Below, piece by piece: positions 3,566-58,082 of a stretch of DNA of 64,000 nt. A program made the position numbers and the translations under genes. The number at the start of each line of letters is the position of its first letter. Position 1 is the stretch's first letter. The notes under the pieces were generated by a model. That model was not told the DNA's origin. It ran no database searches and was given only the letters and a program-made list of their open reading frames with translations. The stretch is from Squalus acanthias (taxonomy: Eukaryota): assembly GCA_030390025.1 (NCBI GenBank), contig CM059431.1:114392001-114456000 (forward strand), given 5' to 3'.

Positions 3566-3589
3566 GATTTGTCATGTTCAGCCCACTGA

Positions 3590-3960
3590 CATATTTTGTC
3601 CCGTTCATTCTGTAGTTTCTGGGCTGCTTCCTTTGATTCCAACGATCTCCTAGTTTGGTATCATCTGAAAATTTAACCAGTTTGCATTGAGTTCCAGAAT
3701 TCAAGTCATTAGTGCAGATTAGAAATGGTAATAGTCCCAACACTAAGCCCTCGGGTACAACACAAAGTACTCCCCCACCCCCCTCATCGACACACACACA
3801 TACACACACCCCAACATTACCTTTCTACCCAGTAGCCATTGCTTTCCACCTTTCACCTACTTTCTTTTCTAAGTTTTTCCCCGAATCCCCATGGATTTGA
3901 GCTTATATGGTAATGTTTCAAGTGGAACTTTTTCAAATGTGTTTTGTGGACATCATTGTA
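3590..3960 (-). mobile_element. Old CR1 RT fragment
   Basis: VPEGLVLGLLPFLICTNDL...KFSDDTKLG resembles CR1 GVPQGSVLGP...KFADDTKLG. An upstream FEKVP motif is also present. Confidence 0.7.
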
Positions 3961-6115: not shown

Positions 6116-6148
6116 AACGTTTCAGGTCGATGAGCTTTCATCAGAACT
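6116..6148 (-). ncRNA. Minimal hammerhead ribozyme motif, truncated at its cleavage site
   Basis: AGUU-CUGAUGA-A-AGCUC-AUC-GACCU-GAA-ACGU-U. One stem II mismatch; the 3' strand of stem I is absent. Confidence 0.65.
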
Positions 6149-6559
6149 GACAGATTTTAGAGATTAACAGCTTTTAAGCAAGTACAGTGCCAGGGTAAAG
6201 GGGGGTGGGGTGGAGGGGGTGGGTGGCGGGGGGAGGTTGGAAAGAACAAAGGGGAAGGTCTGTGATAGGGTGGAGGGCAGGAGTGATTAAATGACAAAAG
6301 GCGCTGATGGTGCGAGGCCAAAGGGGGTGGTAATGGGACAAGTAAAGAAGCAAAATATGGTTCCAGAGGAGGCGTAAATGGCAGCAGCAGATCAGCAGAG
6401 GGGGAGGGAAGCATGGAAAATCTGGCAAAGAGGAGAAGGCTCCCACTGCCCAGGAATGTGGCAGAGAAAGGTAGGTAGACCCCAGGGGTGCGGACCACCC
6501 CAAGCACCAGCCCACAATTCTCCTATCCCAGTGGCTCTGGTGCAACCATCCTCCGTGAC

Positions 6560-6910
6560 TTGCCGTTGCAGATGCAACACCTGCTCTTTCACCTCCTCCC
6601 TTCCACAATTCAGGGCTCCAAAAATCTTCCAGCTCTAACAGCAACTTACTTGTACTTCTCCGAATGTAATATACTGTATTCACTGTTCACGATACGGTCT
6701 CCTCTATGTTGGGGAGAACAAATGCAGATTCGGTGATCGCTTTGCTGAACACCTCCACTCAGTCCGCAAGCATGACCCTGAGCTTCCGGCTGCTTGCCAC
6801 TTTAATTCTCCATCCCACTTCCATTCTGACCTCTGTGACCCTGGTCTCCTACACTGTTCCAATGAAGCTCAATGCAAGCTTGAGGAACAGCATCTCATCT
6901 TTCTACTAAG
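6560..6910 (+). pseudogene. Penelope GIY-YIG endonuclease remnant
   Basis: CNTC...TCTSPNVIYCIHCSRYGLLYVGENKCRFGDRFAEHLHSV...HFNS...KLEEQHLIF, with frameshifts and stops. Confidence 0.85.
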
Positions 6911-8399
6911 CACTTTACAGCCTTCCAGACTCAACATTGAGTTCAACAACTTTAGATCTTAACCGCGCTCCCATTTTCTCCGACAGCAGAGGCTGGTAAC
7001 AGAGAATGGCTGCACCAGTGCCACTGGGATTAGAGGAGGTATGGGCTGTTGCTTAGGGTGGTCTGTACCCCTGGAGTCTACCTACCTTACTCCGCCACAT
7101 TCTCGGGCAATGAGAGCCTTTTCATAATGGCCATTTTCATAACGGTGGGTTCTACTTGCTACGTTAAAACAACTATTTCATATTTTTCAAGTCAATTGAA
7201 GAGAAGTGCGTTTAAAAGGTGGTGGGTGGCACAGTATATTGGTGTTCCAATATGTTGTGCCATGAAATGGTAGGACATGGACTCACATCCGCAACTCCTC
7301 ACACGGAGAACTCCGAAGGGATATTTTTCTGATTTTGTGCTCTTGATGGCAGTCTCACTTGCCATGACCACATATTTGAAACCTGGCTATAGGCTACGCA
7401 CCATTTCATTTGAAATGGTCGGAGAATTGAGTGCCTGAATTTCCAATATATGCCCCCAATGGGCAAGGCTCCCCTATTGTGAGCGTGAAATCAGAAACTG
7501 ATCCCCTAATCTCAGCTGTGATCTCAATGGGAACTGCCAGGTAGAGCCTAGGGGCTTCTTCACAGGGAGGAAAGGAAAATCAAAAGGAATGTCATCCCAT
7601 TATGCTCTCATGCAGCACTTGTGGGCAGCCAGAGAGCACCATAGTGGTATTGATAAGTGCTTAATAGTGCAGAATACCCTGTAATCAGTTCCTTCTTATT
7701 TGGCAGTACAGAATGGATCTTCCAGCTGGTGGGATCAGTCCTGTTGGAGTGGAATATACGTGAGAGGGCCAGGAAATGCAGCAGGGAATACTTTTTGTCA
7801 GATCCCCGCCCGATTATTGCAACATACACAGAATGTGCAAGAGCTTCATTTTGAAATGATAATGGATGCTAAGAGGTCCCAGCATGCTTTCCCATCCGCT
7901 TAGGAAAGGATCCCACTGTGCTCTTGCTACTCACTCATCTGGCAAAAAGGGAAGCCCCATGTGCAGAGAAGCTCTTAAAGGGGCAGAGGCTACTTTGTAT
8001 GTTTTATTAATGGCTGTTTTCTCAAAGGCTTTTTAGTGCTAGTGTTTGTTCATTTTTTCTTTGTTTTAATTTCTCTGGCATCAGCACAGGGAAGGAATGC
8101 TTATGTAGAACCAAAAACAGCTAGATATTGTCTGCAAGGCCATTGGAAAGCCGATTGTAACAGAAGCATTTATAAGAGATCAACAAAGAGGAAGAAGACA
8201 GAGGATGAAGGGGATTACAAAATAAACCTTCACAGCACCTCAGGGAGCAACAAGGCTAACTGCAAGTTACAGAGTCCAATGCTAATTAGCAAATCAAATT
8301 AAAATAAATAATGGGGAGTGTTTTTTAAGTGCCCCAAAAACAGTATTTAGTGGTTGAAGCTGTAAAACAGTAGCCAGATTTCTCACACTTGCCTTTATG

Positions 8400-9171: not shown

Positions 9172-10987
9172 GGGCTTGTCATTTCTGGCTGCCCCCCAGT
9201 TGGAGTCTGTTGTCTTGTATTAAAGGCTGTGACTTTCCCTACCTCGGCGGGTCCATGGCGGGCGACATTGGTGGCGGATCCCGATCCCGCTGCTGTCTCC
9301 ATCCTGACCTCCGACATGACTTTCCCCTGATTGGGCTTGTTAAGCCCGCCCAGCGATTTTCCCAGCCAATTGAAGGAAGCGGGTCTGATGACATCATTTG
9401 ATGACGCGTCATCAGCCAGTTTCCTTAAAGGAACCATGTGCAAATTTACTTTGACATTTATGCTGTCAGTGTTCTACAGCATTGAGGTGCTGCAAACACA
9501 GACAATCACTGCACAGAGGTGCACGGCTGCACCTCGGCTCTCCCATGACTCCCTCCATATGCTAATGCAGGGTGCCACAGCACACAGGGAGGTTCTCTTC
9601 CCTTCCCATGGGTGGAAGAGACCTCCCCAGGAGATCATGCAGCCTAGTTACACATTGCAGAGGAGGGCACAAGCAGGGATGTCATCAGAAGGACCAGGGT
9701 GCAGTGGCACAAACCTTTCAATGATCTCAGTAGATTACAAAATATTACTGCAACGCCACACTCAACCTCATCCTGCTGTGCCTCTCATCACATCCCCATC
9801 ACTCTGCCTTCCCTACCCTACTCCTGCACATCCTTACTCACACCAACTTACCTTGCACCTCCACCCATCCCTCTCTATCTACATTATCACTTCCCCATCT
9901 CACTAGCCACCCCTCACACTCACCCTCGTCCTAGTGCAATCATACCAACTAACAATACACAAGGGTAGCCACTTTGTTGTTTTAGCCAATGTTCATGTGA
10001 AGTTTCTGTTATGGTGCTGTCAAACATTGATTTCTTTATTTTCAACACTTTGCTTTCTTGGACAGATTTGTGTGCACCTTTGGAAGTGGCTTAGTGAGTT
10101 GTAGTGAATGGTGAAACATAACGGTAACTCCCGCAATGCTGATGAGTGTGAAAGGAATGGCTTGGGCATTGTAGGGATACTTTATGTTGTTGGTGTGGGG
10201 TGGTGCCAACCTGGCGCATCATGTGGTAGCCAGGTTGTGCAGCGCCAAGTGAAGTAAATGTGGTCATGGTGAGGCCATCCCTGGTATCCCGGGCAGCAAT
10301 GTGGTCGGGTGCTGATGCCCTCTGTCCTGTGCAGTATCAGGTGATTGCAGACAAGGTTGGTGTGGTGCTACTGGTGTGACTGGTGATGCTGGTGTTGGGC
10401 CTGATCGTGGTCAGATTCTGAAGACCAAGGTGAGAAAGCATAAAGTGCACCCATGCTGATGGACTAGATGGCAGGTGAAGTAGAGATGACAGAAGCATTC
10501 TGTCAATGGTGGGAGAGGTAATGAGGTCAAACTGCATGGAGACTTGTGTAAAGACTTGCAGCATCCCGAATCTGTAGTGGAAATGCTGTTTAGAGATGCT
10601 AGTGCTTAAAGGAAGATATCTCAATCAGCTGGGAGCTTTGACTTGACATTTGAAGCTGTCAACTCATCAGCTGATTCAATGGCCACTGACCTCCCGCCTC
10701 AGCTTCACTGATGAGGTCTAGGCACAGCGGGAAACCGGTGGGAGACCTGTGAAAGTTAAAAAACTGGGAAAAAGGCATTGTTAAGTGGTTGTAAACAAGC
10801 CACTAATGATTTGAATTGGGTCCCCCACCACTGCCTGTCGGGTCTGCTCAGTGCTGGCAGACCCGACATTGGGAAAGTCCAGTGTGCGCGTTTTGACAGC
10901 GGGTTCCCGACCCGCTGTAATCATTTTAAATTTCACAGCTGACCTGCCACCAATCGGGTCCACTGAGCGCTGGCAAAATCGCAGCCA
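9172..10987. mobile_element. Non-autonomous Harbinger element with a Myb/SANT remnant (+) and probable transposase remnants (-)
   Basis: Termini GGGCTTG.../GGCAAAATCGCAGCC. 9740-10987 is repeated at 18176-19456. Confidence 0.75.
9510..9735 (+). pseudogene. Harbinger Myb/SANT-like DNA-binding protein remnant
   Basis: AAPRLSHDSLHMLMQGATAHREVLFPSHGWKRPP...RRTRVQWHKPFNDLSR (frameshifted). Confidence 0.7.
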
Positions 10988-13125: not shown

Positions 13126-16100
13126 AGGGGTAATTTAAACTCCCCCAGCCCAGCGGAAACCGGGCAAAGCAGGATTTAAAGTGGAGTGAGTCAATTTCCA
13201 ATTCTATTCCCACCCTGTAGTGATTTCAATGCCACTGTTTTTTGAATCAGAAGGGAGCAATGTTCACTGTTAAAATTTTTCCTGCGCGGGCCCTTTAAAT
13301 TTGTTGCGCGGCCGTGCATGCGCGGTAACGCTTCCAGCGGCAGCAGCAGGTGAACAGCCTGCGCGGGACCTCGCCTTTGATGGCCTTGTAAGATAAGTGA
13401 TGTCATTTCCTTTGTTGGGGCCAGGAGAAACAGGAGTGCTTCTCCGGGCCCCACAAGAAAAGTCCATGCCTCAGAAATAAAGTCTGGGCCTCTGTTGTCC
13501 CGGGCTCCCCTCCCCCCTCCTGCAAGACCCTGCTGAACCACCGCACCCCCCCCCCCCACCTTCCGCCCCCCCCCACCACCCAACTACTTATCTGAGTGTC
13601 ATTGGGTGGCTCCAGGCATCTGCTCTTCAACTGCCGACAGCCGGTCAGCTGCCTCTTTCCGCTTGCTTCGGGCAGGCAGCTGACTGTTTTGGCGGCCGCT
13701 CCGGACCTGAGTTCCGTCACTTCTATCTCTCCCTTTTTCCTGTTTCTTCATTACCCTCCCCCAGCCTTCATGCCTCCTTTTCTTTCTCTGCCGTCATGTA
13801 CTCTACCCTCACTAACCCCCATTCTCCACCACTCATCATCCTTTCATTCTCCTGCCGCTGCTCAAGACTTGACTCCCTCCTAAATCATTCCACAGCTTCC
13901 TTCTGTGCCTCTCTTGGCATCCTTCGAAAGGCCCACCGAGGTACTTGTCGCTGCCTCCGAGCAAGCAGCAACCCAAATTGCCCTATCTTACTCTCTCCCC
14001 GCCCTAAGCGCCTGCTGCAGGCTAATCCCTCCAACCTCCTCCCTGTCCCTCCCTGCTTTGACCCTCTGGACTACGCCAGTATCATCGACCCTCACCACAT
14101 TTCCCTTCAAAATGTACGTTAACTTTTGAATAAAGGCCTTGTCATCCATGACCTTATAGCGGACGATCAAATTGACATCATGGCATTGACGGAGACATGG
14201 TTGAGGGGTGATGATACCTTTCCCCTTAATGAAGCTACCCCACCTGGCTATACTTTCCACCATATTCCACACCCAAACTGCTGTGGTGGTGTAGCCCTTA
14301 TATCTAAATCGCACCTTGGTCTGTCTCCCTACTGCTCCCGCAACTTCTCCTTTGAGCATTTCCACCCCTCATGTCACTCTTTAAAATCCTTATTCTGTAC
14401 CACCCACCAAAATACCACACCAATTTTCTCAATGAGATATCTTCTCTGCTTTCCTCCCTCTGCCTCTGCACCAAGCGACTTTGTATTCTTGGTGATTTCA
14501 ACCTCCATCTCAACTCATCTTGCTCACTCTCCTCTGAGTTCACTGCCCTCCTTTCCTCCCTTAATCTTTCACTTCATGTCAACTTCCCCACCCATATACA
14601 TGGCCACCCCCTTAATCTTGTCATCTCATGTGGCCTCATTATCCCCTCTATAACCATTACCGATAAGGCAATCTCCGACCATTTCCTTATATCACTCTCT
14701 ACCCATATTCCCCTTCCCCCTCCTAAACCCACCTTTTTGTATCCGCCCCTGGATAAAAACTCTCCCTGAAGTCTTTTACCACTGCACTTTCTAATTCCCA
14801 ACTACCTGGCCTTTGGCCTACTATTCTCCGTGACATCTCTGCAGCTACTGACTTACTAAATCACACCATCACACCATCTTTGATTCCCATTGTCCCCACT
14901 AAAATCATTACACTCTCTCACCCTAGTCATTCTTTCTGGTATACCCTTCATCTCTGCTCCCTTAAGTCCAAGGGACGCAGACTTGAATGACTTTGACGGA
15001 CAACTGATCTAATCATCCATCACCAGATTTGGCTAGATCGTATAAAACGCTATCGGGTCCTCTCTCCATCACTAAAACTGCCCACTATTCTAAGCTCATC
15101 CAGGACAGTAAAAATAACACCAGACTTCTCTTCTCCACCACTAACGGTCTTCTCAAACCACCTTTCCCTGCCTCCTCCTCCCTCAACTCCAAAAATAAAT
15201 GTGAGGAGCTCATGGACTTCTTTGTTAAAAGATCAGCATCATCTGCTCAACTGCTTCTGCTTTCAATTCCCTCCCTTCCCTTAGCCCACTGGACTTTATT
15301 CCTCTCCATTTTCCCCCTGCCCTAACCCTAAATTTGCATATTTCTCTAATTTCTCTCCTATCTCCCTGCTTGCCCTTTCAAAGTTCATCTTGTCAATGAG
15401 CCCAACCTCCTGCTCCCTCGACCGTATTCCTACTAAATTGCTGACAACCCAACTTTCCTTCCTGGCTCCCATGTTAGGGGATATTGTTAGCGGTTCTTTC
15501 TCCTCCGGTATTGTCCCCCTTTCCTTCAAATCTGCTGTCATCATCACTCTCCTCAAAAAAAACAACCCTCGACCTCTCCGCCCTTGCAAACTATCACCCC
15601 ATCTCCACCCTCCCTTTCCTCTCCAAAGTCCTTGAACGTGTTGTCGCCTCCCAAATCCGTGCCCATCTTTCCTAGAACTCCTTGTTTGAATCCCTCCAAT
15701 CAGGCTTTTGCCCCTGCCACAGTACTGAAACTGCTCTTACCAAGGTCACAAATGACATCCTAATTGACTGCGACAAAGGTAATCTATCCCTTCTCGTCCT
15801 TCTGGACCTGTCTGCAGCCTTTGACTCGGTTGACCACAAAATTCTGCTCCAATACCTCTTCACTGTCATCAAGCTGGATGGGACTGCACTCGACTGGTTT
15901 AATTCCTATCTTTCCAACCATAGCCATAGAATCACCTGCAATGGCTTCTCGCCACAAGCTCCATTCCCTTTTCACTGATTCGATCCTCTCTCCCCGGCAA
16001 CTGTGCAAGGCTGACCAAGTCTGTTCGCAACCTTGGTGTCATATTTGATCATGTATTGAGCTTCCTACCTCATATCCGTTCTATCACTAAGACTGCCCAT

Positions 16101-20404: not shown

Positions 20405-20525
20405 ATAATGTGAACTGCTGGAAATCTTAAATAAAAACCGAAAATGCTATAAATACACAGCAGGTCAGTCTGCATCTGAAGGACCAAGACAGGCTAACAT
20501 TTTGATAAGGGAAACGTTAACCGAT
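20405..20525. mobile_element. Degraded Penelope-derived mini element
   Basis: GCTGGAAATCTTAAATAAAAACCGAAAATGCT...CAGCAGGTCAG...GAAACGTTAAC. Confidence 0.6.
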
Positions 20526-22165: not shown

Positions 22166-23182
22166 GGCCTGGAAGTTGGATCATGTCTGAATCAGGGCGC
22201 GATCCCCGGTGCAACATACGCTGCCTGCGCCTAATGACACCAGCAGCAGGACCGCGGCAAATTGGTCAGCCGGCCTCATTAGGATAGTACCAGCGTGCTG
22301 CGGGCGTCATTCACAGCCCCAGAGGCAACTCGCCGGTCACGGAGCGGAGTGCGGGGAGGGTTGGGGGGGAGCGGCTGGGGCAGCAAGATTGGCTGACTTG
22401 GACGCCGGCCGAGATCCTCAGGAGAATCTACAAGATGCACTGCAGCAACTCGCCAAGGCTTCTTCGGCAACACCTCCCAAACCCGCGACCTCTTCCACCT
22501 AGAAGGACAAGGGCAGCAGGTGCATGGGAACACCACCACCTTCAAGTTCCCTCCAAGTCACACACCATCCTGACTTAGAAGTATATCGCCAATCCTTCAT
22601 CGTCGCTGGGTCAAAACCCTGGAACTCCCTCCCTAACAGCACTGTGGGAGTACCTTCACCACACGGACTGCAGCGGTTCAAGAAGGTGGCTCACCACTAC
22701 CTTCTCAAGGGCAATTAGGGATGGGCAATAAATGCTGGCCTTGCCAGCGACGCCCAGATCCCATAAGCAAATTTTAAAAAAATCTAGGGGTGAGAAAGGA
22801 AGGCAAGCGCGGGTGGCAGGGGGTGGTGGGGGGGTGGGGGGGGCTGCGTGCGAGTGGTGGCAGATTTAATGTGGAGCCAGAAGGAGCACTCTGGCTCCTC
22901 CTGGCTCCACATTAAGGTAAGTAAATCTTAGCTATCGGGTGGCAGCCTCCAGCAAACTCTTTAAGGGCCTGAAGTAACTGACTGCAACATGCTGCAATCA
23001 TTCTCAGTCCAATTTCGCAAAGGGGCCTGAAACAAGTATTAGGCCCCCAACGTGCAGAATTAATGGGACTAACATCAGTTTCAGGCGTGTTCATTGGACC
23101 CCTAGTGAACAGCTCGATCCAATATGGCATGGCGATGTGGAAAGAGTGTAAAACGGGAGCCGTGCAATCCAATTTCTAGGCC
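22166..23182. mobile_element. Harbinger-type MITE containing a LINE 3' end
   Basis: TIRs GGCCTGGAAGTTGG/CCAATTTCTAGGCC. Flanks AAT and ACT. Confidence 0.75.
22426..22780 (+). mobile_element. CR1-clade LINE 3' end (second family)
   Basis: SFIVAGSKPWNSLPNS...FKKVAHHYLLKGN*, then a 3' UTR with AATAAA. AATCTA occurs at both ends. Confidence 0.8.
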
Positions 23183-25400: not shown

Positions 25401-25536
25401 AATTTGTTTCATTTTATTAAGAAAAATAAATGAAACTCAAAGAAATTACCCATTGATACAAGTGCTTGCCGTTTGCAAGTACGTTGTACAAATAATGTTA
25501 AAAAGAAGCGTACCTTCAAAACTAGCTCCTAAGAGA

Positions 25537-25730
25537 AAAAAAAGCAAAACACTGCTGGTGTTGGGAATCTGAAATAAAAACAGAAAATGCCTGAAACACT
25601 CAGCAGGTCAGGCAGCATGTGTGGCGAGAGAAAAAGAGTTAACGTTTCAGGTCGATGACCTTTCATCAGAACTCTCTCCACAGATGCCGCCGGACCTGCT
25701 GAGTGTCTCCAGCATTTTCTGTTTTTGTTT
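25537..25730. mobile_element. Penelope-derived mini fold-back element with an HHR
   Basis: 14-bp TSD TAGCTCCTAAGAGA at 25523-25536 and 25731-25744. Inverted arms AAACAGAAAATGC...CAGCAGGTC / GACCTGCTG...GCATTTTCTGTTT. Confidence 0.9.
25635..25675 (-). ncRNA. Minimal type I hammerhead ribozyme, intact motif
   Basis: AGAGUU-CUGAUGA-A-AGGUC-AUC-GACCU-GAA-ACGU-U^AACUCU: 6-bp stem I, 5-bp stem II, palindromic ACGU at stem III. Confidence 0.8.
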
Positions 25731-26047
25731 TAGCTCCTAAGAGACCTTACTCAGTCCAATTGTTAATATAACGCGCACTATACTTCCAAGAGAAAAGAAA
25801 AAAGAAACAAATATAGCCATAAATATAAGAATGTATTAACTCAATCTCCCTTCTCGCCCTCAAACAGCTGCTGGCCCATGAAAAGATTATGGTGTGGTCA
25901 CTTTAGTAACATAGTCCAGGAGCTGTGCTTTTTTTTACTGCAGTCATGAATAACTTTCAGCCTCTAATATATTAATCTTTGTCCATCACAGGCTCTATAA
26001 AAGTAGGTTTTACACCATTCTCCTTTGACGTGTCCAGAAAACATATT

Positions 26048-27675: not shown

Positions 27676-29561
27676 ATTGGGAGGCTTATTTAAGTCGGTT
27701 CTGATGGATCTTCACATGACTACTTTACTAGCTAGCCATCTAGTCAAGTGCTAAATTGCACAGTTTACATGGCAGTTGTAGCGATTTGACACTGCACTGA
27801 TGTAATTAACAAAAAATCAGGATGCGGCTTTGGATAGGAGTTTATTTTGGTTACACGTTGGCTGCAGTAGGACTGCAATTGCTCTTAAGCGAACGCTTCA
27901 AAACTTTAACATTAGCCTTACCTGCAGGGGGTATATTTTGATCTTTAGTGCCTTGAAGCTCTTTACTGGGAGAGCGTATTGGAAATTCAGTTGCAGTCCC
28001 CTCCCCTCCCCAATTTTCCATTCTTTAATTTTAACATCAGGAGCGCTAAAGATGAAAATTTACTTCTGTCAACATTAAAAATGTCACTGGCAGTTAGAGG
28101 TCAGTGGGTGTAGCTCTGCACGTGTGTTTACATATTCTCAGTACTTTCCTCCTCCCTGTAAAACCTAGCAGTGCAGGGCTAGCAGTATAACTCGCAACTG
28201 CCAGCTCACAGCACTCAAATAGTGACTACCCTTCTCAAATGATATTTGCACTATAATTGCAGCATTAAAGTTATTGCAGCCAGTACGTGAAGCCAATTAT
28301 ATCCATCTAGCTCCAGCTGTCGGCACTGACAGGGCTTAAGAAATGCCGCAACTACTAAAAGTTTTTATTGAGGACAAAACCCTCAAGTGTCCTCCTAGCC
28401 ATATGCTCTTATAATACACCCTCAGTAAGGGCATAGCTGTTTTTGCATAATGTTCTACAAACATCAGGGGTGCACATTTAAGATGTGTTCGTATAAAATA
28501 CACGTGGTAATACAATCTCTAATTTACTTATAAAAGTGACAGTTTTATATTTCTAACCAGAGCTTAATCAAAGGCAGCTTACAAAGCTCAGATATTTAGA
28601 TGAGGCTGGCTTTAGTAGACAGATGAACAATTGACTGATTAACATTTGCAGAGGTATAAATGAGGAATGGAGGGCAAAATTGTTCCATATATCCTCCCGA
28701 TGAAGTAGTGGAGGCAGATTTCTTACAGAAATGAATCAGGGAAAACAAAAAGTGAATGAATTCCAAGGTAAGAGATATAAATGTACACAGGCAAAAAGGC
28801 TGAGATGTTAGCAGTAGTATTAAGAATTTTAAACATATGTTAGTTTAGGAATTGTTCGGGGCAATTTTCATTTCTTTACTGCCTCATTTGAAAAAAACAG
28901 GGTGCTACCCGGCAGAAAATAAAATGTCTCTTCATCCCACCCGCTTATGCTTTTTTACCCCTGTTCAGATTTTCCAGGGGACATTAATCCTGGTGACCCG
29001 ACCTCCTATCTGAAGCAGGCAGTAGACTCACGAATAAAAACAACAACCTGCATTTAATTAGGCCTAGAAATTCCCCATTGCAGCGCCAGCCGTTAAGGAC
29101 GCAGTGGTTGCCATTTTGGTGAGGGCCATAGCGCTGCTGTTGCCAGCGTTGGCCTCTCAAATTTAAATGAGCATATCGCGACATCAATCGGCATGTAACG
29201 CCTGATTTGACGCCACGACCTGCTATCTTGGACATTGCCGCACACCGTAACGCCATGTCCTAACTATGCACAGAAAGACGTGCATGAAGCAGCTCTGCAG
29301 AGATGCGGTCAGCACTTCTTAAAGGGACACACACATACACACCTTTCAGGTAAGTTTAGATTTCAGCTTTTGGACGTCTTAAAAATATTTTATTGAAGTA
29401 GTGGATTGGTGCAATACATTTAAAAAGTTGTTGAATGTGCAGGGAGTGCTGCTGGATGCTTGCAAGGCTTTGGATGGTAAAGGAAGGCCTCTGAGAAGAC
29501 AGAAAATGCTGGAAATATCCAGCAGTCAGGCAGCATCTGTGGTGAGAGAAACAGAGTTAAT

Positions 29562-30485
29562 GGCCCTGAATTTGCAGTCGGAGGCGTAACAGAAGAATAT
29601 GCCTCTGAACCGAAAAAAATCCGAAGTTACCTGGTGTCTCTGGAGTTTCGGACTCTTGTGGTCCTGGGCCTGTAGGCATATGCCTACGTAAAGGCCCGCG
29701 TATCCCAGGGGCGCATGTGGTTCGCAAGCGTCCCTGGAATCCTGTGGGCCCGGTCAACCAATCAAAAAGGGGGATTCTTATGATGCTTATGGGGATTCCA
29801 TTTATGTACGGAATCCCCAAAAGCATATTAGAAATCCCCAAATAAATAAGAATTCACATCACTGAACTCCCTCCCTAACAGCACTGTAGGAAAACCTTCA
29901 CCGCACGGACTGCAGCGGTTCAAGAAGGCGGCTCACCACCACCTTCTCAAGGGCAATTAGGGATAGGCAATAAATACTGGCCTTGCCAGCGACACCCAGA
30001 TCCCATGAACGAATTTTTAAAATGATCACATGTTCAAAATTAATTAAAAGACCCTTTAATTAAGCATTTAAAATAAAAATTTAATTTTTTGAAAAATAAA
30101 TTTAAACATTTTAAAATGGGCCATAATATACCTAAACTAAATTTAAATGTATGTGTATGTTTAAATCAATTTAAAAATGTTATTTAACATTTATCTTAAC
30201 CCTTACGCTGGCAAAAGAAGGCCTTGCACCTGCTTTCACCAGGCATAAGGGATTCGTGGGCATTCGCTGGGCATTCGCTGGACAAAAAGCCCCACTCTGC
30301 GCCAGTGCAAATGATTTTGTAGCAGATGCGAAGGATCGGTCCAAGCAGCACTTGACAGATCGCAAGTTCCGGGTTTTCGCGCATGCGCAGCGCTTGCAGA
30401 AACCCGGAACTTGCGGGGCCATTCTGAAGGCTTCCGACAGTGTACGCTGTGCCTACGCTGTCGGAAGCACCGTAATTTCAGGCCC
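29562..30485. mobile_element. Harbinger-type MITE
   Basis: TIRs GGCCCTGAATTT/AATTTCAGGCCC. TSD AAT at 29559-29561 and 30486-30488. Confidence 0.85.
29862..30020 (+). mobile_element. CR1-clade LINE 3' tail, same family as 22426-22780
   Basis: GAACTCCCTCCCTAACAGCACTGT...CTCAAGGGCAATTAGGG...CAGATCCCATGAA. Confidence 0.85.
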
Positions 30486-31609
30486 AATGTTTCAGGTCGA
30501 GATGCTGCCTGACCTGCTGAGTATTTCCAGCATTTTCTGCTTTTATTTCAGATTTCCAGCATCCGCAGTATTTTGCCTCTGAGAAGACCACTTGCTCACA
30601 GTCCTGGGGGGCACATGGAGATGAAGCAGAGGCAGCAAAGGGGACAAGCTGCTTGCAGAGGGAAGGGGAAGAAGCAGAAGAGGAGGAAGCAGAAGAGGAG
30701 GAAGCGGAAGGAAAGATGCAACCCAGGCAGCCCCTTTCTGGCCGCGATATCTGGGATCGAATCATCCGCCTGTGTAACCAATGACCACAACCCCAATTCC
30801 CCTTTCAACATTTGTCCCACACCTTACCTTCCCTCTGTTACTGACCATCACAGTGTCCTCTTGGCCACAATGCTGAAATAAAAGCCACCACAAAGCAAAC
30901 TTTCCAATCCAACTTTATCCATATATGCATCCAATATGACATCAAGAAATCAACTAATCACCCTTGTGCATTCCCTTAGTGACTATCTTGCGTCTGCCTT
31001 CGCCTATCCTAGTGTTCCTACACAGTGCTACCTCAGTGGCTGCAGCACGGCTGGTGGAAGGCTGCTGACTTTCAGTGGGGAACACTGCAGATGGCCTTGC
31101 AGGACAACCTCGAGGAGATGGTGGCTGGGAGTGTGAAATCGAATGACGGTGTTTCTTCTTCTTCTTCTTCACTCTCCTCTCCCTCTTCTTGGTCAACCAT
31201 TGGCTGGGCAGGCTGGATTTCTTGGGTGTCTGAAATGAGGAAGGCATAAGGGTAGGGTTGTGGTGAGGGGAGGGGGTAAAGCAAGAGGTGCATGCTTACA
31301 CCATGTGCGGCTTGTAAATCAGAAGGGATTGTGGGATGAGGGGGAAGTGGGATGTGAAAAGGAGGATAACGTATGAGGATACCAGCCTCTTGTATTCTTT
31401 CAGCCCTGCCGCTGGCCAAGGGCTCAGCCATACCCCTGCCAAGAATGGCCAGCACCATCTCCTCCAAGGGAGTGAGGTGAAGCTAGGATTGTGAGGTGTG
31501 CCTTGTGTTTGGTAGAGATTGTTGGTAGATGAGTGATGGGCGAAGAGGGGGGGTCGTGCATTGAGCAGTGTGCGAGGCTAGTGGTGCAGTTGGTAGGAGA
31601 CGGCTTTTG

Positions 31610-35045: not shown

Positions 35046-35749
35046 GGATATCGGAGCACTCATTCTCATACCCAGCCTCCAGGTAACGCCTTACAGCAGC
35101 TATTTCTCCAAGTCTCAGAGTTTCCTCATCTGATATATGACAGACATCTGCCTTCAGAGTAGTGGAAGGACCTACACAGGCAGCTTACAATGTGCCACCT
35201 ATGCTGATATTCTAGACATCCAAGTTTAATAGTGTTTATAAGGCTTTCCTGTCATCAACTACTTAGTCCAGATCCTCATGTGAGCGACTTTGTTTGATGG
35301 GATATGATGTGTGTCTATGCTGTGGTCAGGAGGATGGTGGCAATCTACTCATATCATTTATAGTGAAATACGCTGCTCACAATACCATTTGTGAAGAGCT
35401 CATGGTACTTGCAGAATGTCTAGTGAAGGCTCAAACCCGTGCTGCTGGGTTGTCTCATGACCAACTAGTGGACTAACCCCTTTGAGAGAGGAGGTGACTG
35501 GAATTTCTTTTCAGGTTGAGGTGGCTCCAAGATGATGCACCTAATGGTGGGAATTCAAAACTCTGTGACAGACTCAGTAATCCAATACCTGAGCCAAGAA
35601 GATTGGCTTTATTCCAAAGTACTGGTTATGATTGACCAGCTAGTCTGGTTCAATAATTGAATGATGTGGAGATGCCGGTGTTGGACTGGGGTGGACAAAT
35701 GTGAGAAGTTGCACAACACCAGGTTATAGTCCAACAGTTTTATTTGAAA

Positions 35750-35787
35750 TCACGAGCTTTCGGAGCTGCTGCTCCTTCGTCAGGTGA
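35750..35787 (-). ncRNA. Minimal type I hammerhead ribozyme
   Basis: UCAC-CUGACGA-A-GGAGC-AGCA-GCUCC-GAA-AGCU-C^GUGA. Confidence 0.8.
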
Positions 35788-35795
35788 AGAGTCCT

Positions 35796-35832
35796 TCACC
35801 TGACGAAGGAGCAGCGCTCCGAAAGCTTGTGA
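35796..35832 (+). ncRNA. Minimal type I hammerhead ribozyme
   Basis: UCAC-CUGACGA-A-GGAGC-AGC-GCUCC-GAA-AGCU-U^GUGA. Confidence 0.8.
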
Positions 35833-36885
35833 TTTCAAATAAAACTGTTGGACTATAACCTGGTGTTGTGCGACTTCTCAATAATTGAAAGTAGAAGGGC
35901 TGGAGAACTTCCAACTTAATCCCAGCTATCCCGGTAAATTAATGCCCTAATGGGTAGGATGGTCTTGGCTGGATAATCAGTGAGAAGTTTATCAGTGCTT
36001 TGTGATGAAAGGCTGTGTAGTTCTGGCTGGTTAAACTCCAGCAGTATCCATACACACACCCGGATGACAAAAAAAATAGTAAAAATGTATCTCTTTTCAA
36101 ATATATAATGGAGTTTCCCTTATTGATAGTCAGTAATGGAAAGTTGCACTCCATATAGCTGCGCAAGGAATTCTCCATTGAATAAAACCGGGTTGCCTAT
36201 TATTTCCAGCTTGCTGGAGTGTTTTTAATTTACACTTCACTGGCTACATGATAAAATAATTATACTAAAGCTTACAAGTAAAAAGGAATTAATTATTAAA
36301 AACAATAAAAGGTGTCGTATGCTATGCGTGTTTCAAGAAGTTATGAAGTTATCCAGGTATATGTAGATGGAAATGATTAGGCAAAGAACAGTAATTTAAT
36401 ACTTAGTGTTGTTGACCCTATCAGTGATGGTTTCTGGAGAACAACCTTGGACCTAGCAGGGGCATCTTGTTCTGAAGTCAGTAAATAAATAAATACGGTA
36501 GCAATAAGAGAACATTCAAAAACATCCCCAAGTATAAATGAGACTGACTGAAAAACAAAATAAATAAATAAATAATCCAACTTTTTCTTCAGAAATCTCA
36601 GGATATACTTGACAAGTGCTAAAGACGCCTGAGCAAGGCTCAGCTTTGACATCCAGTTGGAGTGGAATGAATATGGAAAACTTGAGTCTGGAAGCAGACT
36701 GTGCTTAATGCTGTACATATGGCATATGTTGACATGGTGTGACCTTGGTATCTTTTGTATACATGTTCCCCCTTGATTCTACCCATAATAGACAGTCATG
36801 CACTATTACAGATGGTTTCAAAATGACAGAAAGGTCAGTGTAACTCACATCTTTAAGTGACAGAGTTCAGGCATATCATCCTCAA

Positions 36886-42800: not shown

Positions 42801-43285
42801 CCAAGATTCAGATGGAACATGATCCGGGATGGTAGCATAATGGTTATGTTCCCAGACTAATAATCCAGAGTTCAAATCCCACCATGGCAGTTTGTGAATT
42901 TGAATTTAGTTTAGAAAGAAACAACTAATCAAATCTAGAATAAAAAGATTGTATCTGTAAAAGTGATCATGAAGCTGTAAGATTGTCGTAAAAACCCAAC
43001 TGGTTCACTAACGTCCTTCAGCGAAGGAAACCGGCCTTCCTTATCCGATCTGGTCTATGTGTGATTCCAGTCCCACACCAATGTGGTTGACTCTTAACTA
43101 CCCTTTGAAATGGCCCAGCAAGCCTCTCAATTGTATCAAGCCACTACAAAAAAGAATAAGATGAATAAAACCGGATGGATCACTCAGCTGTGACCGAGGC
43201 ATCGAATCAGGACATGACAAAGGCACACCCAGCGCAGTTGACTCTCCAATGTCCTCCACTGGTGCCAAAGTTACGAGATGTGCCC

Positions 43286-45970
43286 GCGGTATTGATTAAA
43301 GAAACTATTACAGCTGTGAGGAGGGATGATATGTTGGAGGGATCATCAAACGAGGCCATATGGGTCGAATTGAAAAACAAAAAAGGGGCGATCACACTGC
43401 TGGGAGTGCACTACAGACCCCCAAACAGTGAGAGGGAGATAGAAGAACAAATATGTAGACAAATTTCTGAGAAGTGCAAAAACTATAGGGCAGTAATAGT
43501 AGGGGATTTCAACTACCCCAATATTAACTGGGATAAAATTAGTGTGAAGGGTATAGAGGGTGCGGAATTCCTAAAATGCATCCAGGAAAACTTTTTTAGC
43601 CAGTATGTAGCAAGCCCAACAAGGGAGAGGGCGGTTCTGGACTTAGTTTTAGGGAATGAAGCTGGACAGGTAGAAATCATATCAGTGGGGGAGCATTTTG
43701 GTGCTAGTGACCATAATAATGTTAGATTTAAGGTAGTTATGGAAAAGGACAAGGATAGACCAGGAATAAAAATTCTAAATTGGGGAAAAGCAAATTTTGC
43801 TAAGCTCAGAGGGGATTTAGCCATAGTGGACTGGAAACAGCTACTTGAAGGTAAATCAGTGTCAGAGCAGTGGGAGGCATTCAAGGAGGAGATCCGGAGG
43901 GTTCAGACTAAATATGAGCCTTTAAAGAAAAAAGGTGGGACTAACAAATCTAGAGCCCCCTGGATGTCTAGAGACATACAGGGTAGAATAAAGAAAAAAA
44001 GGGAGGCATATGACAAGATAGCGAGGGCTAAATACTCCAGAATCTTTAGAGGAGTACAGAAAGTGCAGGGGTGCAATTAAAAAGGATATTAGGAAAGCAA
44101 AGAGAGAGCATGAAAAATTCTTGGCAAGTAAAATCAAGGAAAACCCAAAGATGTTTTATAAATATATTAAGAGTAAGAGGAGAACTAAAGAAAGGGTAGG
44201 GCCTATTAGAGATGAGGGTAATCTGTGTGTGGAGGCGGGAGATGTCGGTAGGGTTCTTAATGAATACTTTGCGTCTGTTTTCACAAAGGAGAGGGACGAA
44301 GCAGACATTGCTATCAGGGGGAGGAGTGTGAAATATTAGATGAACTAAACATAGTGAGAGAGGAAGTATTAAGGGGTTTAGCAGCTTTAAAAGTGGATAA
44401 ATCCCCAGGCCCGGATGAGATGTATCCCAGGCTGTTAAGCGAAGCAAAAGAGGAAATAGCAGAGGCCCTGACCATCATTTTTCAATCCTCTCTGACTTCA
44501 GGTGTGGTGCCGGAGGACTGGAGGACTGCTAATGTGGTACCCTTGTTTAAAAAGGGAGAAAAAGATAGACCGAGTAATTACAGGCCAGTCAGGCTAACCT
44601 CGGTGGTGGGAAAATTATTGGAAAGAATTCTGAAGGACAGGATAAATCTTCATTTAGAAAGATACGGATTAATCAAGGATAGTCAGCACGGATTTGTTAA
44701 GGGAAGGTCGTGTCTGACAAACTTGACTGAATATTTTGAGGAGGTAACAAGGAGGGTAGATGAGGATAGTGCGTTTGATGTAGCGTATATGGACTTTAGC
44801 AAGGCTTTTGATAAGGTTCCACATGGCAGACTGGTCATGAAGTTAAAAGCCCATGGGATCCAGGGCAAAGTGTCAAGTTGGATTCAAAACTGGCTCGGAG
44901 ACAGGAAGCAGAGGGTAATGGTTGATGGGTGTTTTTGTGACTGGAAGGCTGTTTCCAGTGGGGTTCCGCAGGGCTCAGTACTAGGTCCCTTGCTTTTTGT
45001 GGTATATATCAATGATCTAGACTTGAATATAGGGGGTATGATTAAGAAGTTTGCAGATGATACTAAAACCGGCTGTGTTGTTGACACTCAAGAAGGAAGC
45101 TGTAGACTGCAGGAAGATATCAATAAATTGGTCAGGTGGGCAGAACAGTGGCAAATGGAATTCAATCCAGAGAAGTGTGAGGTAATGCATTTGGGGAGGG
45201 CTAACAAGGAAAGGGAATACACATTAAATGGTAGGACACTGAGTAGTGTAGAGGAACAAAGGGACCTTGGAGTGCATGTCCACAAATCCCTGAAGGTAGC
45301 AGGCCAGGTAGATAAGGTGGTTAAGAAGGCATACGGAATGCTTGCCTTTATTAGCCGTGGCATAGAATACAAGAGCAGGGGGGTTATGCTTCAACTGTAT
45401 AAAACACTAGTTAGGCCTCAGCTAGAGTACTGCGTGCAGTTCTGGTCACCACATTACAGGAAAGATATGATTGCACTAGAGAGGGTACAGAGAAGATTTA
45501 CAAGGATGTTGCCGGGAGTAGAGAATCTTAGCTATGAGGAAAGACTGGATAGGCTGGGTCTGTTTTCCTTGGAACAGAGGAGGCTGAGGAGAGACCTTAT
45601 TGAGGTGTATAAAATTATGAAGGGCATAGATAAAGTGGATAGAAAGGACCTATTTCCCTTAGCAGAGGGGTCAAAAACCAGGGGGCACAGATTTAAAGTA
45701 ATTGGTGGAAGGTTTAGAGGGGATTTGAGGGGAAATTTCTTCACCCAGAGAGTTGTGGGGGTCTGGAACTCACTGCCTGAAAGGGTGGTAGAGGCAGGAA
45801 CCCTAACCACATTTAAAAAGTACTTGGATGTGCACTTGGGATGCTCTAACCTGCAGGGCTACGGACCAAGAGCTGGGAAGTGGGATTAGGCTGGATAGCT
45901 CTTTGTTGGCCGGCGCAGACACGATGGGCCGAAATGGCCTCCTTCCGTGCTGTAACTTTCCATGATTCTA
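43286..45970 (+). mobile_element. Young CR1 LINE (ORF2: partial APE plus RT), 5'-truncated
   Basis: YRPP, VGDFNYP, LDLVL, SDHN motifs; RT; 3' GGCC-GAAAT-GGCC hairpin and ATGATTCTA tail. Frameshifts near 44015 and 44320. Confidence 0.97.
44354..45889 (+). CDS. Uninterrupted CR1 reverse transcriptase/C-terminal ORF (511 aa; C-terminal portion of a frameshifted ORF2)
   Basis: KSPGPD, NYRPV, QHGF, DFSKAFD, GVPQGSVLGP, KFADDTK, RPQLEYC. Confidence 0.85.
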   Translation: MREEVLRGLAALKVDKSPGPDEMYPRLLSEAKEEIAEALTIIFQSSLTSGVVPEDWRTANVVPLFKKGEKDRPSNYRPVRLTSVVGKLLERILKDRINLHLERYGLIKDSQHGFVKGRSCLTNLTEYFEEVTRRVDEDSAFDVAYMDFSKAFDKVPHGRLVMKLKAHGIQGKVSSWIQNWLGDRKQRVMVDGCFCDWKAVSSGVPQGSVLGPLLFVVYINDLDLNIGGMIKKFADDTKTGCVVDTQEGSCRLQEDINKLVRWAEQWQMEFNPEKCEVMHLGRANKEREYTLNGRTLSSVEEQRDLGVHVHKSLKVAGQVDKVVKKAYGMLAFISRGIEYKSRGVMLQLYKTLVRPQLEYCVQFWSPHYRKDMIALERVQRRFTRMLPGVENLSYEERLDRLGLFSLEQRRLRRDLIEVYKIMKGIDKVDRKDLFPLAEGSKTRGHRFKVIGGRFRGDLRGNFFTQRVVGVWNSLPERVVEAGTLTTFKKYLDVHLGCSNLQGYGPRAGKWD

Positions 45971-46924
45971 CTCGTCAAGCAACAGCCTGACATAGTCAAA
46001 CTCACAGAATCATACCTATCAGCCAATGTCCCAGACTCCTCCACCATCATCCCGAAGTTTGCCCAGCCTCACCGGCAGAACAGACCCACCAGAGATGGGG
46101 ACACAGTGGTATACAGTTGGGAGGGAGTGGCCCTGGGAGTCCTCAACTTTGACTCTGGACCCTATAAAGTCTCATGGCTTCAGGTCAAACATGGGCAAGG
46201 AAACCTCCTGCTGATTACCACCTACTGCCCTCTCTCAGCTGATGAATCAGTACTCCTCCATGTTGAACACCACTTGGAGGAAGCACTGAGTGCAGCAAGG
46301 GCACAGACTGTAGTCTGGGTGGGGTTTGTTCCTGCCATTGTCCAAAGCTTTCCGACATTGTGGATGATAATATGGATAATATCCAGTTTCCTGATATAAC
46401 ATGCATTGTCTTCAGGCTGGCTCTAAAAGTGCAGTATAATGCTTCCTATTTCAGCCTGGCTTTGAATGTCCCAATATGAGTGAGCCCACATCCAAGCAGT
46501 GACCTTGTATTGTTTTTTCTTTGTTTGGGTGGCAGCGTAACTACAGCTGGTACAACACCCACATATTCGCTGGCTACCGCTGTTTGCCATTCTATTTTCT
46601 TCAAATTAAATAAAAGGGATGACTGTCCTTTCCGTCTCTCCAGTTAGCACTTTTAGGTGAGAAAAAAATGAAGTGGCAATTAGCTTTCTAAATTAGTTCA
46701 TTTGCATGCATGAGAATGTTTGAATGTGCATGGGTGAAAGATTTATCATGCCACCTTCCCACTGCAGTGCAAGGTGCCAGTATTCCCATTTGCACCACGA
46801 CACAAATAGAGCCAGTACGATAATGGCAAGACCAAAACAATAGGGCTAATCACCAGCTTATAGAGAGGGTCGAATGTTTTTGGAACAAGAGGAAGAAGTG
46901 AAACTTGGATATTAAATTAAGAGA

Positions 46925-47446
46925 TAAAAACAGAAAATGCTGGAAATACTCAGCAGGTCAGGCAGCATCTGTGGAGAGTTATCGTTTCAGGTCGATGACC
47001 TTTCGTCAGAATTGGAAAAAGTTAGAGATGTAACAGATTTTAAGCAAGTGCAGGGGCAGGGAAAGGGGGAGGGGAGGAAAGAACAAAAGGGAAGGTCTGT
47101 GATAGGGTCGAAGGCAGGAGTGACAAAAGGGATGATAGTATAAAGCAAAAGGAGATGGTAATGGGACAGGTAAAGAAACAAAAGATGAGTCTCGAAGAAG
47201 TGTAAATGGGAATGGCAGAATCATCAACAGCTACCATGTGGAAAAATAGGGGCAGAGGTTATGGTCTGAAATTGTTGAACTCGATGTTGAGTCCAGAAGG
47301 CTGAAAAGGGCCTAATCGAAAGATGAGGTGCTGTTCCTCGAGCTTACGTTGAGCTTCATTGGAACAGTGGAGGCTGACCTGCTGCGTATTTCCAGCATTT
47401 TCTGTTTTTATTTCAGATTTCCAGCATCCGCAGTATTTTGCAGTTG
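46925..47446 (-). mobile_element. Penelope 3' fragment with inverted pLTR end
   Basis: 15-bp TSD TATTAAATTAAGAGA at 46910-46924 and 47447-47461. Minus strand LHCSNEAQRKLEEQHLIFRLG..QPSGLNIEF. Confidence 0.9.
46977..47013 (-). ncRNA. Hammerhead motif, probably inactive
   Basis: AAUU-CUGACGA-A-AGGUC-AUC-GACCU-GAA-ACGA-U-AACU. The conserved U before the cleavage nucleotide is mutated to A. Confidence 0.6.
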
Positions 47447-47784
47447 TATTAAATTAAGAGAGTTGGCTTTCAACAAGCATTATTGAATGTGCTGGCAGCA
47501 CACTCAGGAGTATTTCTAAGAATAGACAAAATCAAAGATAATTTTTGGTGGGTATTTCCTTACTTGCTGTATTGAAGGGATAAAATCCAAACTGAACGAT
47601 TCAAATGCATTTGGAAAAATAAACATTTTGGCACAACTGACCAATTTTGAATGGGCCTGATTTTATAATAAGCTAATCAATCTCTTGTGGCATTGCACAT
47701 GAAGGGTCAAGATCAAACGCACCTTTCATGTCAAGTGCGATTAGAAGGCAGGGAGAGAATTGAACCCAAGTACAGGAGCGGAGA

Positions 47785-55435: not shown

Positions 55436-58082
55436 TCATAGAATCATAGAATGTTTACAGCACAGAAGGACACCATTTGGCCCGTCAAGCCCATGCCAGC
55501 TCTCTGCAAGAGTACTTCAGCTAGTCCCACTCCCCGCCCTTTCCCCGTAGTCCTGCAATTTTTTTTCCTTCAGATACTTATCCAATTCCCTTTTGAAAGC
55601 CACAATTGTGTCTGCCTCCACCACCCTTTCAGGCAATACATTCCAGATCCTAACCACTCGCTGCGTATAAAAGTTTTTCCTCATGTCGCTTTTGGTTCTT
55701 TTGCCAATCACCTTAAATCTGTGTCCTCTGGTTCTCAACGCTTCTGCCAATGGGAACAGTTTCTCTCTATCTGCTCTGTCTGGACCCCTCATGATTTTGA
55801 GCACCTCTATCAAATCTCCTCTCAACCTTCTCTGCTCTAAGGAGAACAACCCCAGCTTCTCTAATCTATCCACGTAACTGAAGTCCTTCATCTCTGGAAT
55901 CATTCTCGTAGATCTTTTCTGCACCCTCTCTAAGGCCTTCACATGCTTCCGAAAGTGCAGTGCCCAGAATTGGACACAGTACTCCAGTTGAGGCCGAACC
56001 AGTGTTTTATAAAGGTGCATCCTAACTTCTTTGCTTTTGTACTCCATGGGCTGGATTTTGCTAATGGGGAGCTTTTGGAGCCGGGACTCCCACTTGTCGG
56101 GTCTCAGTCCCGCCTCCATCAACTTCTGGCCAACCCACGCTGTTTTCCCTTGATCGACCTTGTTAAGCCTGCCCAGTGGGCTTAGCAGGCCAAGTAAGGG
56201 GAAGCCGGTTACAGAGAACGTCAGTGTATGTCGTTTCATCTGTCAAAAAATTTTGACAGATGAATTGTCATCGTTTGACAGCTCTGTGAAGCTGTCAAAC
56301 ACTGACATTCTCTGTAGTTTAATGAGTTCTTGAATTCAAGACCTCATCAAACCTCTTTCTTTTGCAGAAATTAGATGGTTGTTGCATTGGAGAATGCAAC
56401 GGCCATCTGTCATCTCAGCCGCAGAGGTGCGAGACTCTCCGCATACCCACCGATTGAAGCCTGCAGGAAGAAACAAAGGTAAGTACACTTTTTCTAACAC
56501 TTTCCACTTACCTCACATACTCACCTCTCCACACTTGCACCCATCACTTACCTTCACAGCGCACTTTTGCACCCCTCCGACCCCCGCAGACCCACTACTC
56601 GCCTCGGTGACCCTGGTGGGTTTCGTAGCCTTCGGGAAGCCCGCACTTGTGTGGGCAAAATGGGGATAATCCTCTTATCTGCCTGTTAACTACTTGTTAA
56701 CAGGCAGTTAAGTGGCTGTAATCCCTTCCCGCCTCCAACGAGACGGGACCCGGCACGGGACGGCTTCCTGCCTCCTGGCAAGATGGCACGGAGGCGGGTT
56801 GGGGGCGGGTTGGGCACCCGCCCCCAAATTCTGCCATTTTCCCGGCAGTCTCACCTCCAAACCCGCCTCCCCAGGGCTGGCAAAATCCAGCCCATGCCTC
56901 TATTTATGAAGTCCAGTATCCCGTTTGCTTTCTTAACCGCTTTCTCAACCTGCCCTGCCACCTTCAACGATTTGTGCACATATACCCCCAGATCTCTCTG
57001 TTCATGCACCCCCTTTAGGATTGTACCCTTTAGTTTCTATTGCCTCTCCTCGTTCTTCCTACCAAAATGTATCACTTCGCACTTTTCTGCATTAAATTTA
57101 ATCTGCCACGTGTCCGCCCATTTCACCAGCCTGTCTATGTCCTCTTGAAGTCTTCACTATCCTCCTCACTGTTCACTATACTTTCAAGTTTTGTGTCATC
57201 TGCAAATTTTGAAATTTTACCCTGTACACCCAAGTCCAAGTCATTAATATATAGCAAGAAAAGCACTGGTCCTAGTATACATTCCTCCAGTCCGAAAAAC
57301 AACCATTCACCACTACTCGCTGTTTCCTGTCACTTAGCCAATTTTGTACCCATGCTGCCACTCTCGCTCTTATTCCATGGGCTTCAACTTTGCTGGCAAG
57401 CCTATTATGTGGCACGTTATCAAACGTCTTTTGGAAATCCATATACACCACGTCAACCGCATTGCCTTTATCAACCCTCTCTGTTACCTCATCAAAAAAC
57501 TCGATCAAGTTAGTTAAACACGATTTGCCTTTAACAAATCTGTGCTGGCTTTCCTTAATTAATCCATTCTTGTCCCCGATTATCATTTCCAAAAGCTTCC
57601 ACACTACTGAGGTTAAACTGACTGGCCTGTAATTCCTGGTTTTATCCTTACACACTTTTTGAAGAAGGGTGTAGCATTTGCAATTCTACAGTCCTCTGGC
57701 ACCACCCCTGTATCTAAGGAGGATTGGAAGATTATGGTCAGTACCTCTGCAATTTCCTCCTTAACCTCCCTCAGCATCCTAGGATGCATTCCATCTGGTC
57801 CTGGTGACTTATCAACTTTAAGTACAGACAGCCTTTATAGTACCTCCTCTATCAATTTTTATCTCATCCTGTATCTCCTCTACCTCCTCTTTCACTATAA
57901 CTTTGGCAGCATCTTCTTCCTTGATGAAGACAGATGCAAAGTATTCATTTAGTACCTCAGCCATGTGCTCTGCCTCCGTGCGTAGGTCTCCTTTTTGGTC
58001 CCTAATCGGCCCCACCCCTCCTCTTACTACCCATTTATTATTTATGTGCCTATAGAAGACTTTTGAATTCCCTTTTATGTTA
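55436..58082 (-). mobile_element. CR1 LINE (RT region to 3' end), tail-to-tail with the previous copy and split by a MITE
   Basis: NYRPVSLTS, DFQKTFD, RPQLEYCVQFW; (ATTCTATG)n tail. Confidence 0.95.
56048..56893. mobile_element. Harbinger-type MITE in CR1
   Basis: Perfect TIRs GGGCTGGATTTTGC/GCAAAATCCAGCCC, inserted in CTCC-AT-GCC of the CR1. Confidence 0.9.

Follow-up and report, generated by a model that had tools for sequence, protein, structure and literature searches.

A short head-to-head insertion with a hammerhead motif on each strand in Squalus acanthias DNA, probably derived from a Penelope-like element

The palindromic unit and its borders

The window analysed here, a 64,000-nucleotide stretch of Squalus acanthias DNA (assembly GCA_030390025.1, contig CM059431.1, positions 114,392,001 to 114,456,000), contains at 35662-35880 a short unit consisting of two inverted arms, 35702-35789 (88 nt) and 35794-35880 (87 nt), joined through a 4-nt centre (35790-35793). 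Of 88 aligned positions, 3 distinguish the arms: two are substitutions, both CpG-type transitions, and the third is a 1-nt indel in a loop. A preliminary description of this DNA had recorded an inverted repeat of ~88 bp, near-perfect and with a 4-nt spacer, which is base for base what is found. It had also called the entire 219 bp a palindrome; this holds for 35702-35880 and fails for 35662-35701, a one-sided 40-nt extension that lies outside the inverted repeat and has no mirror copy.

The unit is bounded by a direct repeat. Its 9-bp core, ATAATTGAA, is found at 35653-35661 and again at 35881-35889, as already noted in that description; at its full exact extent the repeat is 12 bp long (35650-35661 and 35878-35889), AT-rich and inclusive of an ATT, with the last 3 nt of the right arm common to arm and repeat. 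The 12-mer occurs twice in the whole 64-kb window, each time at a border of the unit. The earlier reading of the locus as an insertion accompanied by a target-site duplication (TSD) is supported.

In its sense direction, on the minus strand, the left copy presents, in order, the hammerhead, an AATAAA hexamer (35739-35744, recognized by its letters only), the body of the arm and the 40-nt extension. The right copy, whose sense is on the plus strand, repeats this order (with the mirror copy of the hexamer at 35838-35843) but lacks the extension. The two copies are head-to-head, in the sense that their 5' ends meet in the centre and their 3' ends point outward. Each arm is read as a copy of a pLTR-type terminal repeat of a Penelope-like element (PLE), tail-less on the right and running on, on the left, into the extension, which is read as a PLE 'tail' at the 3' end of the minus copy. 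Both copies are shorter than 130 nt, and the unit is devoid of open reading frames. No other copy of its family is found in the window by self-comparison (93 self-matches).

Hammerhead motifs

Each arm contains stem I, UCAC/GUGA (4 bp); CUGACGA; an unpaired A; stem II, GGAGC/GCUCC (5 bp); GAA; AGCU; and N17. The motifs occupy 35750-35787 on the minus strand and 35796-35832 on the plus strand, and differ in the loop of stem II (4 nt on minus, 3 nt on plus) and in the identity of N17 (C on minus, U on plus). All the core and stem elements that had been listed in support of a complete minimal hammerhead ribozyme in each arm are present on each strand, and the predicted cut sites, when re-derived, fall where they had been placed: after 35828 on the plus strand and between 35754 and 35753 on the minus strand.

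Both motifs are recovered by a pattern scan and by a structure-aware scan. The pattern combining core and stems has 2 matches in the window versus 0 in 100 shuffled sequences; a looser pattern restricted to the core is not significant (2 matches in the window, a number reached by 11 of 100 shuffles). The structure-aware scan finds 3 motifs in the window, the two of the unit and one at 25633-25677, versus 0 in 40 Markov control sequences. Rfam, on the other hand, yields no hammerhead at gathering score in the whole window (0 Rfam matches of any kind), and its 10 matches at E<=10 over 35400-36100 also include none, the highest-ranking of them being generic miRNA hairpin models that fall well short of their cut-offs.

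Minimal hammerheads are general in the pLTRs of metazoan PLEs, and the monomer is reported not to cleave (Cervera & De la Pena 2014, PMC4209133); cleavage by dimers is attributed to Lunse et al. 2016, as cited in PMC6765202. According to PMC4209133 the minimal type is marked by an unpaired base between 9 and 10.1, by G10.1-C11.1, and by a palindrome at 15/16 that replaces stem III, and opposite-strand pairs occur 100-700 bp apart in Schistosoma mansoni. The motifs described here possess CUGANGA and GAA, A15.1-U16.1, stems I and II, the unpaired base at 9/10.1, G10.1-C11.1 and the palindromic 15/16. They resemble the published ones in being of type I, with a short stem I, the unpaired base, a palindrome in place of stem III and an opposite-strand arrangement; they differ in having a stem II of 5 bp, compared with 7-8 bp in S. 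mansoni, and in lying 8 nt apart, as opposed to about 100-700 bp (PMC4209133). These shared details support the earlier assignment of both motifs to the minimal type I hammerheads of PLE pLTRs, with activity that is predicted only. The computed fold of a hammerhead dimer has an energy of -19.1 kcal/mol versus 2 x -10.0 kcal/mol for the monomers, a difference on which the energy model cannot decide.

Other inverted pairs and repeats in the window

A second hammerhead family contributes three further TSD-flanked inverted pairs to the window, each tailed on one arm only, by roughly 30 nt. Breakpoints differ from pair to pair, and the two arms of each are very unequal. The pair at 25523-25744 (14-bp exact flanking repeat, tail on the left) retains an intact hammerhead on the minus strand at ~25633-25677, with the palindrome ACGT; its right arm begins downstream of the hammerhead. 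The pair at 29487-30587 (13-bp exact flanking repeat) is interrupted by another element of ~930 bp (~29562-30485) that breaks the hammerhead at its predicted cleavage triplet and has short terminal inverted repeats, a 3-bp duplication and several internal palindromes. The pair at 46910-47461 (15-bp exact flanking repeat) consists of a 450-nt minus arm and a short plus arm that carries the tail; its hammerhead has a palindrome with one changed base. With the unit at 35662-35880 included, one of the four inverted pairs in the window is symmetric. The sister insertions share the build of that unit, which is therefore an ordinary output of such elements here, one of them happening to be symmetric.

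The long minus arm (46921-47370) matches 6852-6977 at 84% and thereby reaches into the end of an endonuclease-like frame. This GIY-YIG-like frame, at ~6560-6962 on the plus strand, has a CX3CxxC motif (near 6564-6584), IYCI and YVGE motifs and one stop; it aligns to two GIY-YIG frames of metagenome loci, and its match to the Pfam GIY-YIG family is weak (E 0.069). Two other pieces of the second family are present: its hammerhead and 3' untranslated part at 6116-6381 on the minus strand, opposite in orientation to the plus-strand piece at ~6560-6977, and a short, decayed minus-strand piece of its 3' end at 20416-20478.

Repeats abound in the window, which is animal DNA containing LINE fragments (of 25 frames, 2 match RVT_1 and 2 an AP-type endonuclease family); the LINE-type AP endonuclease and reverse transcriptase (RT) fragments lie at 43169-45889, 57272-57685 and 14123-14653. 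Self-comparison also lists short imperfect palindromes at 22866-22915 and 56671-56715, in which the structure-aware scan finds no hammerhead.

Distant relatives in metagenome contigs

Exact-pattern scans with the arm find 0 loci in viral, metagenome and prokaryotic genome contigs. The hammerhead pattern finds 26 metagenome loci; these are distant relatives, chosen by the hammerhead pattern itself, and 22 of the 26 have no blastn match to the element. The closest, L007 and L003, are 90% identical to it over 40 nt, a match that takes in stem I and AGCU, that is, positions not fixed by the search pattern. A second full copy of the hammerhead region is present in 0 of the 26. A perfect palindrome follows GAA at 17 of the 26 loci (representing only about four families) and at 0 of the 4 among the 26 that resemble bacterial genes. 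A palindrome at L021 proved unrelated to that locus's hammerhead.

Protein-coding context is provided by a few of these contigs. At L007, which is rearranged, a GIY-YIG-like frame lies on the same strand about 750 nt upstream and carries CX3CxxC (Atlas score 0.97; no Pfam hit). An RT fragment on the contig of L003 resembles the RT of L025, and L025 itself displays a Penelope-type RT, GIY-YIG and hammerhead in that order at 623-3155 (minus strand), with RT and endonuclease in different frames. The link to PLE reading frames thus comes from distant relatives (RT, GIY-YIG) and from the second family of the window (GIY-YIG-like), not from the exact family of 35662-35880. A CX2-5CxxC linker preceding the endonuclease characterizes PLEs of the Neptune clade, as described in PMC8557442, and CX3CxxC in this position in the nearest relatives may point to a Neptune-like rather than a Poseidon affiliation.

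A family of short dispersed elements is also seen among the 26, in animal-like contigs (L002, L004-L006, L008-L010, L013, L015, L017, L018, L020-L023 and L026). Its members have a minimal hammerhead with a 6-nt palindrome, a different stem I and ~60 conserved bases downstream, in unrelated flanks.

The family in public sequencing runs

Contigs of 4 of 24 listed public runs were compared over 35450-35812. Three are genomic: X1 and X5, which come from different studies of the same organism (A), and X9, from another organism (E). The fourth, X18, is RNA by guess. In X1 the summed contig depth is 10-70 on plainly unique flank bins versus 1.2-5.0 million on tail and arm, so that arm and tail are ~10^5-fold deeper than the flank (summed contig depths not being the same as copy numbers); similar jumps are found in X5 and X9. 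The family of arm plus tail is clearly very abundant, and the depth of its tail is as high as that of its arm. A stretch of ~40 nt in the left flank (35559-35600) is raised to depths in the hundreds in the three genomic runs, and for that reason resembles another, low-copy repeat.

The outer ends of the unit recur in other copies. Loose ends with unrelated long flanks occur at 35660/35661, the tail-bearing end, in all four runs, and tail-less ends of other copies are found at the equivalents of 35697 and 35702 (listed for X5 only). A 1580-nt contig of X9 follows the flank from 35450 up to 35661 precisely, after which come 1235 letters foreign to the element; in X1 a contig at the same flank runs into the tail and stops at 35676. 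Judging from where its match stops, the contig of organism E is probably an empty site.

The centre of the palindrome behaves differently from the arms. Its depth is ~9,400-9,700 in X1, 3,500-3,800 in X5 and 325-350 in X9, which amounts to 0.2, 0.06 and 0.02%, respectively, of peak arm depth in the three genomic runs and to roughly 900, 160 and 24 times single-copy depth. The centre has another length in 84% (X1), 93% (X5) and 91% (X9) of this depth, through the loss of 1-3 letters or the gain of one; in one contig the centre is 37 nt long. Depth at the centre recurs and lengths vary, so that fold-back recurs at this place, but with different centres. Behind 35789 the loose ends are short, with a median of 8-20 nt, and have their first five letters in common, with poor agreement beyond. 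The varied centres fit repeated de novo formation better than they fit a replicating palindrome.

Variants of the hammerhead core all account for less than 3% of depth in these contigs, and most flank positions are likewise without variants; at position 35751, in stem I, 28% of X1 depth carries a variant. The loop indel that distinguishes the two arms is also a variant of the family at large (about 5% of X1 depth).

Folding of a read-through RNA

The whole unit is predicted to fold as a single hairpin with an energy of -174.6 kcal/mol (z -28.3; 0 of 200 shuffles equal it). Isolated arms fold no better than their shuffles (z 0.09 to -1.5), and for this reason folding energy is no evidence for a ribozyme. 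The long double-stranded RNA hairpin that the preliminary description had envisaged for a read-through transcript is thus upheld by the predicted fold, and would be expected if the locus were read through.

Its other proposal, that such a transcript might cleave itself as it is made, fares less well. Because the arms are head-to-head, transcription from either side reaches the antisense arm first and the ribozyme second. In 8 of 8 prefixes that contain the whole hammerhead, the predicted probability of stem I/II pairing is 0.0 and that of the hairpin is 0.9997 (these are equilibrium values; the order of synthesis points the same way). The short isolated hammerhead, by comparison, has predicted stem I/II formation of 0.80 and 0.86, and the full isolated plus arm only 0.06 and 0.10. 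With the antisense arm coming first, the hairpin probability near 1 and the hammerhead stems near 0, co-transcriptional self-cleavage is unlikely according to this model. Each transcript, moreover, has one sense ribozyme, so that it lacks a second one with which to dimerize in cis. On the same predictions, the unit in general is judged unlikely to cleave itself.

In run X18 the tail and arm are covered and the centre hardly is, with depth 28 at 35790 and 0 at 35801-35812; since hairpins assemble badly, this coverage provides no evidence on expression. Six runs on record as RNA contain 0.05-0.10 of the words.

Origin of the unit

The reading that we favour, with a probability of about 0.8, is that 35662-35880 is a single, extremely 5'-truncated insertion of an endonuclease-bearing (EN+) PLE, made up of two head-to-head hammerhead-bearing ends and likely to be a dead end. 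Of its components, the PLE parentage of the family is very probable and the de novo origin of this palindrome highly likely; whether the second arm would have come from priming at both ends of the target, in preference to fold-back of a cDNA, is close to an even bet.

The layout is one that has already been described for PLE insertions, and the unit is one more copy of that described type. PLE insertions are reported to comprise a neighbouring 5'-truncated copy in inverse orientation, together with a tail of 30-40 bp that is often limited to one end (PMC8557442; PMC8969392), and the Pen2a/Pen2 elements of Adineta vaga have an inverted pLTR, a 31-bp one-sided tail and TSDs of 8-10 bp, mostly in head-to-head arrangement (PMC3846280). 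The unit is like the EN+ PLE insertions of PMC3846280 and of Fig. 2 of PMC8557442 in its head-to-head repeats, one-sided extension, short TSD and AT-rich target; at 40 nt its tail is at the top of the published 30-40 range. It is unlike them in being an almost perfect palindrome with two whole hammerheads, its copies ending at nearly the same point. The PLE protein of the anole Anolis carolinensis (PAc, a Poseidon protein) cleaves and extends both strands of AT-rich DNA with a preference for ATT, and has two RT start sites that delimit the tail; hammerhead cleavage is dispensable for insertion in vitro (Frangieh et al. 2024, PMC11167929). The unit shares with this system a tail that would lie between two start sites, the use of both strands and an ATT target; inverted insertions are not reconstituted in the main text of that paper.

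On the favoured reading, a PLE protein acting in trans would make staggered cuts, 9-12 bp apart, in the two strands of an AT-rich target, from which the TSD would result, and each 3' end would prime reverse transcription, one from a start at the end of the tail and the other from a start ~40 nt upstream. A 3-nt match to the target may help priming at the upstream, tail-less start. The tail would be present on one side only because the two priming starts are ~40 nt apart. Both cDNAs would stop just upstream of stem I of the hammerhead, and their ends would be joined through a few extra bases to generate a variable centre. The hammerheads would be passengers, coming from the terminal repeat of the parent. 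A more specific proposal, which must be regarded as doubtful, is that the main template would be a short, protein-free RNA of ~130 nt, beginning shortly upstream of stem I and not at the site of cleavage, and that a dimeric PLE protein would copy two of these simultaneously, using both cut strands.

The alternative that survives best is self-priming: a single cDNA begun at the tail end would fold back near the 5' end of the hammerhead and be copied until resolved at the tail-less site. Palindromes at the inverted junctions of rotifer Penelope elements have been interpreted in this way (PMC3846280), and the end points of the unit's two arms at the 4-nt centre are indeed only a few bases apart. 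An arm copied from its partner should nevertheless be identical to it at birth, and these arms differ at 3 of 88 positions; the occurrence of the loop indel as a variant within the family weakly favours two templates. The very unequal arms of the three sister insertions and the ability of the anole enzyme to extend both cut strands (PMC11167929) also speak against fold-back, which is a plausible route for this unit with rather less than an even chance.

A replicating palindrome was the view of the preliminary description, which took the unit for a protein-free mobile element; it would constitute a non-autonomous family of its own, whose transcripts would be processed by their ribozymes and inserted again as a whole. 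Both hammerhead motifs are intact, as such a life cycle would have it. Fold-backs at the same centre stand well above single-copy depth in both samples of organism A and in organism E, so that the breakpoint at this centre is a recurrent one; the table of centre lengths would look no different if several master copies, each with its own centre, were replicating. Non-autonomous retrozymes derived from PLEs do exist (bioRxiv 10.64898/2026.07.22.740005), and the unit resembles these non-LTR retrozymes in being protein-free and pLTR-derived, with a type I hammerhead. The retrozymes described there are, however, head-to-tail tandem arrays with two ribozymes on the same strand, whereas the unit is head-to-head, with one ribozyme on each strand; no tandem hammerhead array exists at the locus, which has the inverted pair instead. 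That one ribozyme per strand is predicted to be buried in the 88-bp hairpin and, as a minimal monomer, is of the kind reported to be inactive (PMC4209133). Furthermore, the centre accounts for very little of the family's depth, 84-93% of its depth differs in length from 35790-35793, and symmetry is confined to one inverted pair of the four in the window. Given an anatomy that is that of a published PLE product, three sisters with other breakpoints and centres mostly of other lengths, the mobile-unit interpretation is not sustained and must be considered improbable. A search of titles and the opening lines of abstracts, in mainly open-access literature, found neither a replicating palindromic hammerhead-pLTR family nor twin priming by PLEs.

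Palindromes can also arise by local inverted duplication or as a fold-back artefact of long reads. A single terminal-repeat copy might have been duplicated in this way after insertion, or the palindrome might be such an artefact, and no listed contig covers the whole stretch; on the other side, both arms lie within the TSD, the right arm stops where other family copies also end (the 35697/35702 equivalents), the arms are not identical, such centres are crossed by contigs from the public runs, and the build recurs in three sister insertions, all of which makes this origin very improbable. Descent from a MITE or another DNA transposon with long inverted repeats, to which a short, inverted-repeat, TSD-flanked unit might otherwise point, is scarcely credible in view of the 40 non-repeated nt between left TSD and left arm (the inverted repeats are not both terminal), the retroelement-type hammerheads and the mostly non-palindromic depth of the family.

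Significance

The unit is useful for repeat annotation and of modest value as a test object. How PLEs form inverted copies is an open matter in the literature, the cycle being described as undefined in PMC8557442 and the later steps as not validated in PMC11167929. In so abundant a family, a comparison of many short palindromes, in their arms and in their centres, could tell two-template priming apart from fold-back. If the short-template proposal were true, near-perfect hairpins would be built anew at hundreds of loci and would constitute a record of two-template priming as well as a source of double-stranded RNA. Hairpin-forming insertions of this kind could feed double-stranded RNA silencing of the family.
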